IMG/VR virus record: IMGVR_UViG_3300020463_002275
Span: 96,001 to 160,000 of that record
DNA: 64,000 nt
Strand: one strand, 5' to 3'
DNA from: a virus
Numbering within the stretch: position 1 is the first letter of the stretch; every line of letters begins with the position of its first letter. Below are positions 14,330 through 18,901 of this stretch, piece after piece. Below the pieces are notes generated by a model. The model did not search any database, was not told where the DNA came from, and saw nothing but the letters and a program-made list of their open reading frames with translations. A program made the translations under genes and the position numbers.

Positions 14330-15502
14330 ATGTCAGAACTACTCGAAAGCCGCTGGCAGGAGACTAAAACTGCGTTGCTAGAAGGCCTTAACGGTAATAA
14401 AAAATCCGTTATGGGTGCAACTTTGGAAAATACTAGAAAGTATTTGGCAGAGACTGCAACAGCAGGAACAACTTCAGCCGGTAATGTCGCAACTCTTAAC
14501 AGAGTTATTTTACCAGTAATCAGACGTGTAATGCCAACAGTTATAGCAAATGAACTTGTTGGAGTACAACCGATGACTGGTCCAGTGGGTCAAATCCACA
14601 CACTAAGAGTCCGTTATTCGGACACTTTTAACGCAGGTGCATCAGGTGCAACTGCAGGTGAAGAAGCACTTTCACCATTCAAGATTGCTGAAAGTTATTC
14701 AGGTGCAACTAGTGGTAAAGCAGATGCTACAGCCGCTAAAGAAGGTGTACCAGGAAACAAACTAAGCATCCAGATCCTAAAACAAACAGTTGAAGCGAAA
14801 ACTCGTAAATTGAGTGCTCGTTGGACTTTTGAAGCGGCTCAGGACGCACAGTCACAGCATGGTATTGATGTTGAAGCAGAAATTATGGCGGCACTAGCCC
14901 AAGAAATTACTGCTGAGATTGATCAAGAAGTTCTTGCTTCACTTAGAACACTTAGTGGTACAGCCGTTGAAACATACGACCAAGCCGCAGTAAGTGGTAC
15001 AGCAACTTTTGTTGGTGATGAGCATGCCGCATTGGCAGTTCAAATCAACAGAGCGGCTAACTTAATCGCACAGCGTACAAGACGTGGTGCTGGTAACTAT
15101 GCAGTGGTAAGTCCATTTGCGTTAACAGTACTTCAGTCTGCAACAACTTCAGCGTTCGCAAGAACAACTGAAGGTTCGTTCGAAGCACCAACAAATACTA
15201 AATTTGTAGGTACATTGAACAACGCTATGAAAGTATATGTTGATACATATGCAGGCGATGGTACAGCAGTACTAGTAGGTTACAAAGGTTCATCTGAATC
15301 AGATGCACCAGCGTTCTACTGCCCATACATTCCGCTAATGTCAAGTGGTGTTGTAATGGACCCAGGAACATTCGAACCAGTTGTGAGTTTCATGACTAGA
15401 TACGGATATGTTGAGTTATCAAACACAGCATCGTCACTTGGTAATGCAGGTGACTACCTAGCGAATGTAGCGATTACAAACGCTAACGTATCATTTAGTT
15501 AA
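14330..15502 (+). CDS. gp23: Major capsid protein (gp23 family)
   Basis: VGVQPMTGPVGQIHTLR, AKTRKLSARWTFEAAQD, EITAEIDQE, FYCPYIPL and MTRYG motifs. Confidence 0.96.
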   Translation: MSELLESRWQETKTALLEGLNGNKKSVMGATLENTRKYLAETATAGTTSAGNVATLNRVILPVIRRVMPTVIANELVGVQPMTGPVGQIHTLRVRYSDTFNAGASGATAGEEALSPFKIAESYSGATSGKADATAAKEGVPGNKLSIQILKQTVEAKTRKLSARWTFEAAQDAQSQHGIDVEAEIMAALAQEITAEIDQEVLASLRTLSGTAVETYDQAAVSGTATFVGDEHAALAVQINRAANLIAQRTRRGAGNYAVVSPFALTVLQSATTSAFARTTEGSFEAPTNTKFVGTLNNAMKVYVDTYAGDGTAVLVGYKGSSESDAPAFYCPYIPLMSSGVVMDPGTFEPVVSFMTRYGYVELSNTASSLGNAGDYLANVAITNANVSFS

Positions 15503-15526
15503 TAGGTACAAGGTACAAAATTGTAG

Positions 15527-15554
15527 AAATAGGCCCTTCGGGGCCTATTTTTTT
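15527..15554 (+). terminator. Rho-independent terminator after the major capsid gene
   Basis: AAATAGGCCC-TTCG-GGGCCTATTT followed by TTTT. Confidence 0.92.
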
Positions 15555-15555
15555 G

Positions 15556-15563
15556 ACTAAATA
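15556..15563 (+). promoter_or_regulatory. Late-type promoter ACTAAATA immediately upstream of the riboswitch
   Basis: TAAATA core; the predicted start (~15568) coincides with the 5' end of P1. Confidence 0.55.
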
Positions 15564-15567
15564 TTTG

Positions 15568-15614
15568 TACGTTCATCCTACGGGACGGAAGTAGCACTAA
15601 GCGAAGGAACGCAC
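15568..15614 (+). promoter_or_regulatory. Glutamine riboswitch (glnA RNA motif, class I)
   Basis: CGTTC-A-[TCC TACG GGA]-CGGAAGTA-[GC ACTAA GC]-GAAG-GAACG-C matches the glnA aptamer (P1 CGUU../..AACGC, CGGAAGUA and GAAG E-loop strands) with minimal P2/P3. Confidence 0.85.
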
Positions 15615-15637
15615 TTAACTGTAAAAGGGAGAGTGTT

Positions 15638-15790
15638 ATGAATCACAGAGACTTCGAAGCGGCTCGCAAAAAGATCCAAACGAAATTAGCACACAAAGCA
15701 ATACATCGGAAACAGATGGAAAGACCACTGTCAAGACCGCGTTGTGAGAAAAATATACTAAGTTCAGACCCAAGATTGCAAAAAATTTAA
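15638..15790 (+). CDS. 50-aa basic protein downstream of the glutamine riboswitch (not in ORF track)
   Basis: MNHRDFEAARKKIQTKLAHKAIHRKQMERPLSRPRCEKNILSSDPRLQKI*; SD GGGAG about 6 nt upstream. Confidence 0.75.
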   Translation: MNHRDFEAARKKIQTKLAHKAIHRKQMERPLSRPRCEKNILSSDPRLQKI

Positions 15791-15809: not shown

Positions 15810-15838
15810 TTGACTTTATATATAAAGTCTGTTATATT
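15810..15838 (+). promoter_or_regulatory. sigma70 promoter (TTGACT-N17-TATATT, extended -10 TG) containing an 18-bp palindrome
   Basis: -35 at 15810-15, -10 at 15833-38; GACTTTATATATAAAGTC at 15812-29. Confidence 0.8.
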
Positions 15839-15844
15839 ATATAC

Positions 15845-16061
15845 ATAAGCAACAAAAAAGTAATTAATTTTTGTTTATAGTGCCAGGAAGAGGCTCCTAC
15901 CAAAAGAGTCGAACTGGACTGTCCAGGGGTGGTACCCAGGCTTGGTAGTAGAAATACGCTGAGTCACATCGCACTAACCCGCGGGGATAGGTTGTACGGT
16001 TTAGAAATGGTATTTCGGTCCGTGCTTGTAGGTGTACCCAAGTCCTACCTATTTTGCTTAT
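15845..16061 (+). ncRNA. Unknown ~217-nt structured ncRNA with pseudoknot
   Basis: Bracketed by promoter and terminator; closing stem ATAAGCAA/TTGCTTAT, TAGTGC/GCACTA, CCAG/CTGG, loop CTACCAA complementary to TTGGTAG, ATAGGT/ACCTAT, GTACGG/CCGTGC; no convincing ORF. Confidence 0.7.
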
Positions 16062-16065
16062 AATT

Positions 16066-16090
16066 AAAAAGGCTCTTAGGAGCCTTTTTT
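16066..16090 (+). terminator. Rho-independent terminator
   Basis: AAAAAGGCTC-TTAG-GAGCCTTTTTT. Confidence 0.9.
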
Positions 16091-16125: not shown

Positions 16126-17862
16126 ATGAATAAAATAATAATGTTAGTCACGGTTCTTACCGTGTTTTTTTGTGGCAGAAGTTTGGCCGAACCTTTAGAA
16201 ATAACAATCACAATCCCTAGAACAGCAAGCGATCTAGCAACCAGCACATACTCGTATGATGTTATGGGTGTTGACACTCCAGTTGAAACTTCCAACGGTG
16301 TAAATATTGTACAAAACGGACCTCCAGGACAATCAAGTAGTTTGTTTATAAGAGGAACAGAAAGTGATCATAGTTTAATTTCATTAAACGGAATTGCAAT
16401 CAAAGACCATAGTACACCAAGCGGAGCAGATGATTTAAGTCAACATAACTTGATAGGAATTGACTATTTGACCGTTATAAAGGGTCCTATGAGCAACACA
16501 CACGGGCCTAATGCGGCAGGTGGTGTTATTGATATGCATTCAAGTACTTATGGAAACAGTTATATTGATGTTAGTATAGGCTCTAATAATCTTATCAGCA
16601 AAGAAATAAGTGTAGTTGATAATAATAAAACTGATAGGCATAATTTTAAAGTTACTGCTAATCAAACAACAACAGATGGTATAAGTGTATACGCTGAAGG
16701 AGAAGAAAAAGATCCACATGAAGCAAATACATTTAATATTGGATATGATTACATAGGAAACAAATACATTCTTAAACTAAACAAAATTAAAGACAAAAAT
16801 AATATGAGTCTTGATAGCGGATCAGCAGATGTATTAAATTATACAGGTGATTGGGAATGGAATAACAACCAAATAGATTTCCAAACCAAAAATACAAGAG
16901 TAGTCCTAAACAATAGTAAACATGATAGAACATATACTAAAAACGGAGTAGTTGACAAATACAACAGTGAAAGTAATACATATCTAACACAACATACATT
17001 CAACAAAGATACATATGATTATTCTGTAGGTTGGGAATACAACGAAGCAAGTGCTGACTTTTCAACAAATATAAACAGTTATCAAAGTAGTGTTAACGAA
17101 AACAGATATACAACTGGATTATTTTTTGAAATAGACAAAGAATATTACATGGGTACTATTTTAAGTTTCAGCAGTAGACTTGATAGTATCAGTGACTTTG
17201 ATAATCAGATAAGTTCTAGAATAGGTATATCACATGATGGTTATAGAGCAAGTTATTCACAAGGTTATAGACTACCAACATTATATGAAATGTATGGTAT
17301 TGACAGTTATGGATATCAAGGTAATACAAATTTAAAATCTGAAGATATAGATTCATATGAAGTAGGATATAGAATGGGCAATTTTGATACTGCATTATTT
17401 TACATAGAAGAATCAAATGCAATTACATATTCTAATTCATCTTATGTAAACGTTGCAGAAGGTGGTGAAAGCAAAGGTGCAGAAGTAAGTTACAGTAGAT
17501 CTATTTTAGGGTATGATCTTGCATCAAATGTTACATATACTGAAGCAAGACTTAATAATGGAAGTGAAAAATTACGTAGACCAACTTGGGTAAATAATTC
17601 TAGTATATCAAAAAATATTAATGATTTGAATTACAAAGTGTCAATGAATTATTATGGTGATCATAAAGACATTGACAGTTCAACATTTAAAACAATTGAT
17701 AAAGATAGTATTACTACTTTTGATTTAGAACTAAATCAACTAATGGAAAACAAAATGTTTTACTTAGGATTATATAATATTACAGATGAAAAATATGAAC
17801 AACCAGACGGTTACAACCAATTGGGAATTAATTTCCAAGCAGGTATTAGAATAACAATGTAA
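16126..17862 (+). CDS. btuB: TonB-dependent outer membrane receptor, BtuB (vitamin B12)-like
   Basis: Signal peptide; plug motifs QNGPPGQSSSLFIRGT..DH and IKGPMS..HG..AAGGVI closely parallel BtuB; PTLYEMYG..GNxNLKSE and LYNITDEKYE...GY barrel motifs. Substrate is inferred. Confidence 0.8.
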   Translation: MNKIIMLVTVLTVFFCGRSLAEPLEITITIPRTASDLATSTYSYDVMGVDTPVETSNGVNIVQNGPPGQSSSLFIRGTESDHSLISLNGIAIKDHSTPSGADDLSQHNLIGIDYLTVIKGPMSNTHGPNAAGGVIDMHSSTYGNSYIDVSIGSNNLISKEISVVDNNKTDRHNFKVTANQTTTDGISVYAEGEEKDPHEANTFNIGYDYIGNKYILKLNKIKDKNNMSLDSGSADVLNYTGDWEWNNNQIDFQTKNTRVVLNNSKHDRTYTKNGVVDKYNSESNTYLTQHTFNKDTYDYSVGWEYNEASADFSTNINSYQSSVNENRYTTGLFFEIDKEYYMGTILSFSSRLDSISDFDNQISSRIGISHDGYRASYSQGYRLPTLYEMYGIDSYGYQGNTNLKSEDIDSYEVGYRMGNFDTALFYIEESNAITYSNSSYVNVAEGGESKGAEVSYSRSILGYDLASNVTYTEARLNNGSEKLRRPTWVNNSSISKNINDLNYKVSMNYYGDHKDIDSSTFKTIDKDSITTFDLELNQLMENKMFYLGLYNITDEKYEQPDGYNQLGINFQAGIRITM

Positions 17863-18338
17863 TGAATAATTTATATTGGTTCTTAGGATTTATATTAGTA
17901 TTAGCATTAAGTAGAATTATACCACATCCACCAAACTTCACTCCAATAATTGCTGTGGCTGTTTTTGCACCAAGAATAATCAGGCACATTCCAACAGTAA
18001 TTTGTGCAACATTACTTGCTATGTTTATAGCAGATATGTATTGGGGATTGCATAGTTATATGATATGGACTTACAGCAGTATTGCTTTGTGTACGCTTTT
18101 AGCAATAAAAGTAAGATTACTAACTATGTCTGTTGTAGGACCTATATTATTCTTTATTGTAACTAACTTTGCAGTGTGGACAAGTGGATACTATGGATTA
18201 ACTATTCAAGGCTTGTTAGCATGTTATATAGCGGCAATACCGTTCTTTTATATGACACTGTTAAGCACATTAGTATACGTTTCTTCTTTCTATATTATCG
18301 AAAAAATGGTGATCACGCAGGTTAAACATCGTACTTAA
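17862..18338 (+). CDS. DUF6580-like integral membrane protein (putative ECF S-component-type vitamin transporter)
   Basis: SRIIPHPPNFTPI motif, FFIVTNFAVW, CYIAAIPFF; 5-6 hydrophobic helices; coupled to btuB (TAATG). Confidence 0.75.
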   Translation: MNNLYWFLGFILVLALSRIIPHPPNFTPIIAVAVFAPRIIRHIPTVICATLLAMFIADMYWGLHSYMIWTYSSIALCTLLAIKVRLLTMSVVGPILFFIVTNFAVWTSGYYGLTIQGLLACYIAAIPFFYMTLLSTLVYVSSFYIIEKMVITQVKHRT

Positions 18339-18439
18339 TTTAGTTTGATAAATACTTGTGTCGATAATCGTGCCGTGCAAACGGACTTATGCAGAATTGA
18401 CCCACTGCGTATTACTTAGAACGTAACAAGGAGAAACAA

Positions 18440-18901
18440 ATGGGAAGACCATTAAATAAACGACTATTTGGTGTAGCAGGCGTAGGACCTACAGCAAGTG
18501 GAACAGAAATCAAAGTAAATTTCCACAACGGAACAGCAGTTAAAGAGGGCTATATTGTAAAACAACTTGGCTCAAAAAAATTCCGTTGCGAAGAAATAGA
18601 AACAGCAGGTACATTTGATTGTACTTTAAAAACTGGTGTATTACCTGCGAATTTATCAGCAGGTGAAATGAGTATTTCAGTACAAGGTGCAGATTCAGAA
18701 ACATATGGCGTAAGTAAAATTACAGGCAGAAAAGTTACTGTTGCTTCACCAAGTGCAACTGGTTCAAATGCATTAGCAGGAACATCACTGCAATTTGCTC
18801 TAACAGGTGCCGCGGCATCAGGAATTGTTAGAATGGAAGAAGCAGGCGATGATAACACATTATCTGGTACAGATGATGATGATTTCACTGAAGATGCATA
18901 A
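18440..18901 (+). CDS. Virion structural protein (MGRPLNK family)
   Basis: Late promoter at 18347, SD AAGGAG; paralog of the next gene. Confidence 0.6.
   Translation: MGRPLNKRLFGVAGVGPTASGTEIKVNFHNGTAVKEGYIVKQLGSKKFRCEEIETAGTFDCTLKTGVLPANLSAGEMSISVQGADSETYGVSKITGRKVTVASPSATGSNALAGTSLQFALTGAAASGIVRMEEAGDDNTLSGTDDDDFTEDA

Follow-up and report, generated by a model that had tools for sequence, protein, structure and literature searches.

A type-1 glutamine riboswitch behind the capsid gene of a marine jumbo phage and its probable output, a 50-residue basic protein

What is controlled by a glutamine-sensing RNA that stands directly behind the capsid gene of a marine phage? To our knowledge, viral riboswitches are rare and their outputs are mostly unassigned. 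The locus considered here lies in a stretch of 64,000 nucleotides (hereafter the window) taken from a 182-kb IMG/VR record with a CheckV completeness of ~51%. The phage is an uncultured marine jumbo myovirus which encodes a T4-type portal, a prohead protease and a gp23-type capsid gene (Pfam); its capsid protein is 71% identical to that of Vibrio phage 2.275.O (349 kb), and the nearest isolates are phages of about 290–470 kb. The riboswitch and the small gene that follows it form a cassette occupying a variable slot directly behind the capsid gene (Table 1), and the role that we find most likely for the switch is that it lets a 50-residue basic protein be made only in a nitrogen-rich infected cell.

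Table 1. Features of the capsid locus and the riboswitch cassette, in coordinates of the window
Feature	Position	Strand	Remarks
Major capsid protein gene (T4 gp23 type)	14330–15502	+	Pfam Gp23, 8e-99
Intrinsic terminator of the capsid transcript	15525–15554	+	Hairpin 15525–15552 with UUCG loop, then U-run
T4-type late-promoter-like motif CTAAATA	15557–15563	+	Ends 6 nt upstream of P1; putative function
Type-1 glutamine riboswitch aptamer	15568–15615	+	Rfam RF01739
Aptamer helix P1	15570–15574/15607–15611		CGTTC/GAACG
Aptamer helix P2	15576–15578/15583–15585		
Aptamer junction motif	15586–15593		CGGAAGTA
Aptamer helix P3	15594–15595/15601–15602		
Aptamer junction motif	15603–15606		GAAG
Linchpin C	15612		Putative long-range G-C pair
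Expression-platform hairpin	15611–15636	+	GCACUU 15611–15616 pairs with GAGUGU 15631–15636
Shine-Dalgarno sequence GGGAG	15627–15631	+	6 nt upstream of AUG; 3 of 5 bases paired in the hairpin
Basic micro-protein gene, family A	15638–15790	+	50 aa; GGGAG 6 nt upstream of AUG
manA-family RNA	15853–16058	+	RF01745, 47.5 bits (gathering 55.2), E 5.7e-11
TonB-dependent receptor (Plug and barrel) and DUF6580 membrane protein	16126–18338		Between the manA and freshwater-2 RNAs
freshwater-2 RNA	18371–18442		RF02980, 43 bits (gathering 49.9), E 9.3e-6

The aptamer matches RF01739 over the full length of the model (positions 1–53 of 53), scoring 48.4 bits (E 1.5e-7; gathering score 35). This is the sole Rfam family to exceed its gathering score in the 64-kb window, the 182-kb record holds a single copy, and the type-2 family, RF01704, scores only 16.9 bits in the window. 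The P1 helix CGUUC/GAACG encloses the junction strands ACGGAAGUA and GAAGG, all of which are present and identical to the consensus. A sequence-only reading of this DNA had proposed a compact glnA-type aptamer with this P1 and these motifs, to be checked with Infernal against RF01739, and on both counts it was borne out. Among the 24 leaders of an alignment termed A3, P1 is invariant, P2 carries compensatory changes and the linchpin column, C15612 here, is C in every sequence; MAFFT placed P2 and P3 out of register in this alignment, and only the outer pairs of each were counted. P3 is reduced to 2 bp, and the whole leader folds no more stably than its shuffles (z -0.3), which is usual for small aptamers that need their ligand and tertiary contacts. 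Judged by its sequence, the RNA is a genuine glutamine-sensing riboswitch, with glutamine binding predicted. The C directly 3' of P1 is described as partner in a long-range G-C “linchpin” pair of the glutamine-bound aptamer (Ren et al., as quoted in PMC6212724), and a pair of this kind at C15612 is putative.

T4-type late promoters have a TATAAATA-like -10 element placed at a set distance ahead of the transcript start and lack a -35 element. A late-type promoter had been suggested upstream of the aptamer, and a candidate for it, CTAAATA, is present there. TAAATA ends 3–10 nt (mode 6) upstream of P1 in 186 of 374 unique viral leaders (50%), against a background rate of 0.6% in the same contigs, an enrichment of ~80-fold in the viral leaders; at that distance it is found in 4 of 70 cellular leaders (6%). 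The spacing of CTAAATA and the enrichment of the motif together suggest that the aptamer forms the extreme 5' end of a late transcript, whose start is predicted ~6 nt downstream of CTAAATA, near position 15569, at the first base of the aptamer, the promoter function being itself putative. The hairpin which precedes this element has a folding energy of -19.5 kcal/mol (z -3.1), matched by 1 of 200 shuffles, and, with its U-run, it agrees with the earlier placement of the aptamer right after a capsid terminator. A simple promoter and terminator scan flagged neither the terminator nor the late promoter, and both were examined separately.

No terminator was found between the aptamer and the small ORF, so that control would be exerted at translation. 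An alternative helix, GCACT/AGTGT, had been noticed around the Shine-Dalgarno (SD) sequence, overlapping the 3' strand of P1. This helix (GCACU 15611–15615 with AGUGU 15632–15636) is indeed present and is extended to six pairs by U15616–G15631; its 5' strand GCACUU includes the final P1 base and the linchpin C, whilst its loop holds the GGGA of the SD, with CU at 15619–15620 paired to GG at 15627–15628. The local hairpin (-8.1 kcal/mol, z -2.2) is part of the minimum free energy fold of the whole leader. Covariation was analysed in a set of ~575 aptamers that reduced to 262 unique platform classes, viral leaders with a non-canonical 5' strand and cellular leaders having been added. The contiguous helix that begins at the linchpin C and stops immediately 5' of the start codon has a mean length of 4.61 bp, compared with 3.03 ± 0.07 (maximum 3.23) in 500 permutations, which combined each 5' strand with a start region taken from another platform class, and helices of at least 5 bp occur in 64% of the platform classes versus 19% in the permutations. 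The covarying classes include CACU/AGUG, CACC/GGUG, CAUCU/AGAUG, CAAUCU/AGAUUG and CGCC/GGCG, the first of which is that of the window and has at least 4 bp in 34 of 34 cases. Within A3, 97.5% of the cells of the platform helix are paired, versus 26–59% when the partner is slid, and two of the pairs change on both sides (C-G to U-A). Roughly one third of the platform classes have other layouts and no linchpin helix, so the rule is common rather than universal; such classes (e.g. CACCA...GUAAAGGAGCA) were excluded from A3 and retained in the permutation test. A second layout, ..AAUACC..GUAAAGGAGCA..CC.AUG, was observed at viral loci such as L490, L501 and L340; it has no linchpin helix and may work differently.

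In the gifB riboswitch glutamine raises translation, and it has been postulated that the linchpin C and its 3' neighbours pair there with the ribosome binding site in a helix which glutamine melts (PMC6212724). The helix of the window exists, is conserved and covaries, and it fits this postulated ON mechanism. Because the linchpin C and a base of P1 are both engaged in it, the helix and the bound aptamer exclude each other, and this exclusion, taken with the activation shown experimentally in gifB, leads us to infer a switch that is translationally ON with glutamine.

The mechanism that we propose is as follows. A T4-type late promoter would start the mRNA at the first base of the type-1 glutamine aptamer. 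When glutamine is absent, the linchpin C15612, the next four bases and the last base of P1 would pair with the six bases between the SD and the AUG, and the closed hairpin would bury both the SD and the start region. When glutamine is bound, P1 would close and the linchpin C would enter its long-range G-C pair, the base of the hairpin would be lost and the ribosome binding site freed, turning translation on by analogy with the tested Synechocystis gifB switch. The output would be a very basic protein of 50 residues, in which a single amphipathic helix is followed by a conserved C-terminal motif that is probably disordered. Late in the infection of a nitrogen-replete cell, this protein most likely binds a macromolecule of the host or the phage. 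Taken as a whole, this model of a late-promoter mRNA, a glutamine-ON platform and a 50-residue basic protein as the output of a self-contained cassette is in our judgement quite probably correct.

The ORF behind the aptamer had been described as unannotated and basic (7 R, 7 K, 5 D/E), and the composition holds (7 R, 7 K, 2 D and 3 E; pI 11.0). The family to which its product belongs, family A, has a pN/pS of 0.29 over 37 distinct coding sequences and a codon-position entropy of 23/16/41, variation thus falling mostly at third positions, and the other two frames are closed in 36–37 of the 37. By these substitution patterns the ORF is a real gene under selection. Family A is narrow and found only in marine phage contigs. 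A profile search of 5.8 billion clusters recovered 117 family A clusters at 90% identity, all of ~50 aa, all from marine metagenomes (Tara, JGI) and none of them named, whilst an exhaustive HMMER search of 1.84 billion representatives gave only 59 relatives (50% identity), essentially all small. A tblastn search of 50,697 isolated phages found nothing, and the peptide has no match in Pfam, PHROGs, NCBIfam, PDB sequence profiles or the ESM Atlas; in PHROGs only families B and B2 find a counterpart, phrog_32989 (function unknown). Three long profile or HMMER matches were rejected as translated tandem repeats that matched by chance. A divergent subfamily of 51 aa has its C-terminal motif in common with family A. 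A search for longer forms gave singletons on short contigs, read-through or frameshift forms, and two fusions in which the N-terminus of the divergent subfamily is joined to DUF6321 (function unknown).

AlphaFold2, supplied with an alignment of 69 sequences, modelled a single helix at residues 3–28 (pLDDT 84–95) and a tail at residues 29–50 which, despite a pLDDT of ~58, is the most conserved part of the family: N39, Q48 and I50 are invariant and R33, P34 and P45 nearly so. A tail that is modelled with low confidence yet highly conserved is typical of a short linear motif which folds on its partner. The 50-residue peptide lacks any hydrophobic or transmembrane stretch.

An IMG/VR scan with a 17-mer covering the 3' end of the aptamer and the platform found at least 119 contigs, and almost all of the matches listed have a short basic ORF behind the same SD-AGUGU-AUG platform; one match (L036) was rejected as due to chance. 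More than 60 contigs of the window's lineage have the cassette immediately behind their capsid gene, and the post-capsid slot carries unrelated small basic peptides in different phages (families A, B, D and G). Family A was also found in a second context, between the IscU gene and tRNAs/DNA ligase, and in a third, ahead of a dNMP kinase and the tail sheath; three contexts with no constant functional neighbour indicate a mobile, self-contained unit. Many further viral glutamine riboswitches (e.g. L465, L449, L348) drive peptides of 16–35 aa that hold little beyond the DUF4278 core YRGVxY, and others drive unrelated basic peptides of 30 aa (families C–G). With YRGVxY-type outputs elsewhere and family A here, phages carry both kinds of output. 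A survey of the genes downstream of the motif in other phages, as had been advised, thus recovers the same aptamer-platform-small-ORF unit with differing peptide families.

The post-capsid slot of the window holds three structured RNAs in series. The manA RNA, which has a sigma70-like promoter of its own at 15810–15838, follows the cassette in 9 of 9 related capsid-slot loci and is usually followed in turn by a freshwater-2 RNA. The latter lies directly upstream of the next structural gene (18440–18901) and scores above threshold at the same place in related contigs (46–71 bits). The TonB-receptor and DUF6580 genes which separate the two RNAs have 29–33% GC versus ~40% in the flanks, and among the matches listed this insertion is common only to the window, L063 and L079. 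For the receptor and the DUF6580 protein, the best of the cellular matches examined came from adjacent genes of a SAR116 SAG (27% and 49%) and from a SAR86 MAG (25% and 38%), and these are too distant to name SAR116 or SAR86 as the host.

What the protein does once it has been made can be read in several ways. It may be a late structural or nucleic-acid-binding accessory, neutralising DNA or RNA or binding ribosomes or RNA, in which case the riboswitch would limit a dispensable Arg/Lys-rich product that is costly in nitrogen to nitrogen-replete cells. Such a role would be in keeping with late expression from a promoter that adjoins the capsid gene, with a pI of 11 and with one long amphipathic basic helix, and the occurrence of unrelated small basic peptides (families B, D and G) at the same slot in related phages suggests a generic physico-chemical function. 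However, strict conservation of the C-terminal motif speaks for a specific partner rather than bulk charge, and one location of the cassette, between IscU and DNA ligase, is remote from structural genes. We consider an accessory of this kind unlikely.

Glutamine riboswitches of cyanobacteria precede DUF4278 proteins, namely IF17 and IF17-like proteins (Klahn et al., 2018, PMC6212724), and the sequence-only reading had raised a gifB-like output that modulates glutamine synthetase (GS). This part of it found no support. DUF4278 matches none of 26 family A members at E<=10, the YRG motif is absent from all 43 members inspected for it, and the C-terminal region typical of IF7 (consensus R.L..........R.Q.ML.RLA.EVG, from fetched sequences) was not detected in family A; kinship with IF7/IF17 was rejected by hhalign comparison with 27 IF17 and 3 IF7-like sequences, C-termini included, at probabilities of 0.1–0.2%. 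Nor was there a GS or PII gene near any copy examined. It is therefore decidedly unlikely that the peptide acts as a functional analogue of IF7/IF17, which at high glutamine would bind and inactivate host GS or another nitrogen-regulation protein such as PII. What speaks for it is the regulatory logic of gifB, in which a type-1 glutamine riboswitch precedes a small, very basic and partly disordered protein (PMC6212724), the tandem glutamine riboswitches before glnA and amt in marine heterotrophs, which tie the signal to nitrogen assimilation, and the YRGVxY mini-peptides driven by many other viral glutamine riboswitches. The case for GS inhibition by family A is one of functional analogy.

The neighbouring RNA bears on a further alternative, in which the switch would be OFF with glutamine, or would have mRNA stability or the manA RNA behind the ORF as its main target instead of translation. 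The manA RNA accompanies the ORF in all nine capsid-slot loci, and no terminator was found between the stop of the ORF and the manA RNA, so the late transcript may run through it, perhaps as far as a terminator near 16065–16090. Against this stand the covarying helix, whose linchpin C and P1 base make it incompatible with a bound aptamer, the cassettes without manA in other genomic contexts and the fact that the tested type-1 switch is ON, and we regard the alternative as very improbable. Lastly, that the cassette sets lysis timing by releasing a holin, antiholin or spanin-like factor as glutamine rises, as the sequence-only reading and a speculation for phage Melnitz (PMC9004378) would have it, is hardly credible in spite of the late expression, since the peptide has no hydrophobic segment and so is not a holin or spanin, its model shows a soluble basic helix and neither lysis nor nitrogen-assimilation genes are neighbours in the three family A contexts examined.

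The preferred reading, a late, glutamine-ON cassette whose basic protein binds a specific partner, could be extended further. Glutamine-gated basic micro-proteins may represent a widespread coupling of late infection to host nitrogen in marine phages, with related small ORFs behind tandem glutamine riboswitches in SAR86-type bacteria, and the C-terminal motif of family A may bind and reprogram a component of host nitrogen assimilation or translation by a mechanism unrelated to IF7/IF17. This extension is offered tentatively, as a speculation that is unlikely to hold in full.

Phage glutamine riboswitches as such are not new, and their novelty was earlier overstated: they have been published for cyanophages (PMC9964418, PMC9602691) and for Melnitz, Mosig and pelagimyophage MAGs (Buchholz et al., 2022, PMC9004378). 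No description of their outputs was found in the papers searched. What is new here is a late-promoter-driven riboswitch of type 1, a platform that sequesters the spacer and a new output family. An output can be assigned, a micro-protein being the sole product of a phage late mRNA that has a metabolite sensor at its start. Hundreds of marine viral contigs contain the unit of aptamer, platform and small ORF, the peptide families in it being interchangeable, and it is proposed that phages read host glutamine late in infection.

In its logic the cassette resembles gifB of Synechocystis, with which it has the aptamer family, a small basic protein as output and the pairing of the C after P1 and its 3' neighbours with the ribosome-binding region in common. 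The details differ. In cyanobacterial gifB leaders the CGCCUC after P1 pairs with the GAGGCG of the SD, so that the 3' strand of the helix is the SD itself, whereas here it is the spacer between SD and AUG (AGUGU); the promoter there is NtcA-regulated rather than a phage late promoter, P3 is cut to 2 bp here, and the product is unrelated to IF17/DUF4278. No association with a nitrogen-metabolism gene or a gifB homologue was seen, the downstream ORF having no match to DUF4278 or another family. Family A is like IF7 and IF17 (gifA/gifB) in being small, basic, partly disordered and, as predicted, made in a glutamine-dependent manner, but no sequence or profile similarity to them was detected in family A. 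A further parallel is the type-2 or Downstream-peptide motif RF01704, which precedes yfr6-type short ORFs in marine picocyanobacteria (Weinberg et al., 2010, PMC2864571). There too a glutamine aptamer stands before a very short conserved ORF (17–100 aa), recognised by its pattern of synonymous substitutions; the ORFs of that motif have the DUF4278 core, however, which family A lacks.

Among phages, Melnitz and Mosig are, like the phage studied here, marine myoviruses of streamlined heterotrophs or their gene pool, and positions 15569–15641 of the window are 87.8% identical to Melnitz over the aptamer, the platform and the start codon. The Melnitz element was published as the 3' domain of ssrA, controlling the tmRNA (PMC9004378). 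In the Melnitz genome (MZ577095; our locus L001) the Rfam tmRNA ends before the aptamer begins (2575–2992 and 3000–3048, respectively) and the ARAGORN call overshoots to 3038. Behind the aptamer, at 3071–3169 (+), is an unannotated basic ORF of 32 aa with the same platform, overlapping an annotated CDS on the minus strand (3094–3195). The Melnitz riboswitch probably gates this 32-aa micro-protein and not ssrA, and the published reading of it as a tmRNA control is likely to be wrong. The present phage differs from Melnitz in its peptide, which belongs to another family and has 50 aa, and in being a jumbo phage with a different capsid lineage.

A survey in 2018 found glutamine riboswitches only in cyanobacterial genomes (PMC6212724). 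RF01739 aptamers, mostly in tandem and scoring 54–65 bits, were found here in SAGs and MAGs of SAR116, uncultured Alphaproteobacteria, Pelagibacteraceae, SAR86 and other Gammaproteobacteria (cellular contigs with tandem aptamers: L132, L141, L209, L240, L170, L195 and L224). The genes downstream of them are amt, glnA and porin-like genes, as well as small basic ORFs that end in ..PYYL and have a phage-like platform. Glutamine sensing by the glnA RNA is thus not confined to cyanobacteria, and the range of the type-1 glutamine riboswitch is extended to marine heterotrophs (SAR116, Pelagibacteraceae and SAR86).
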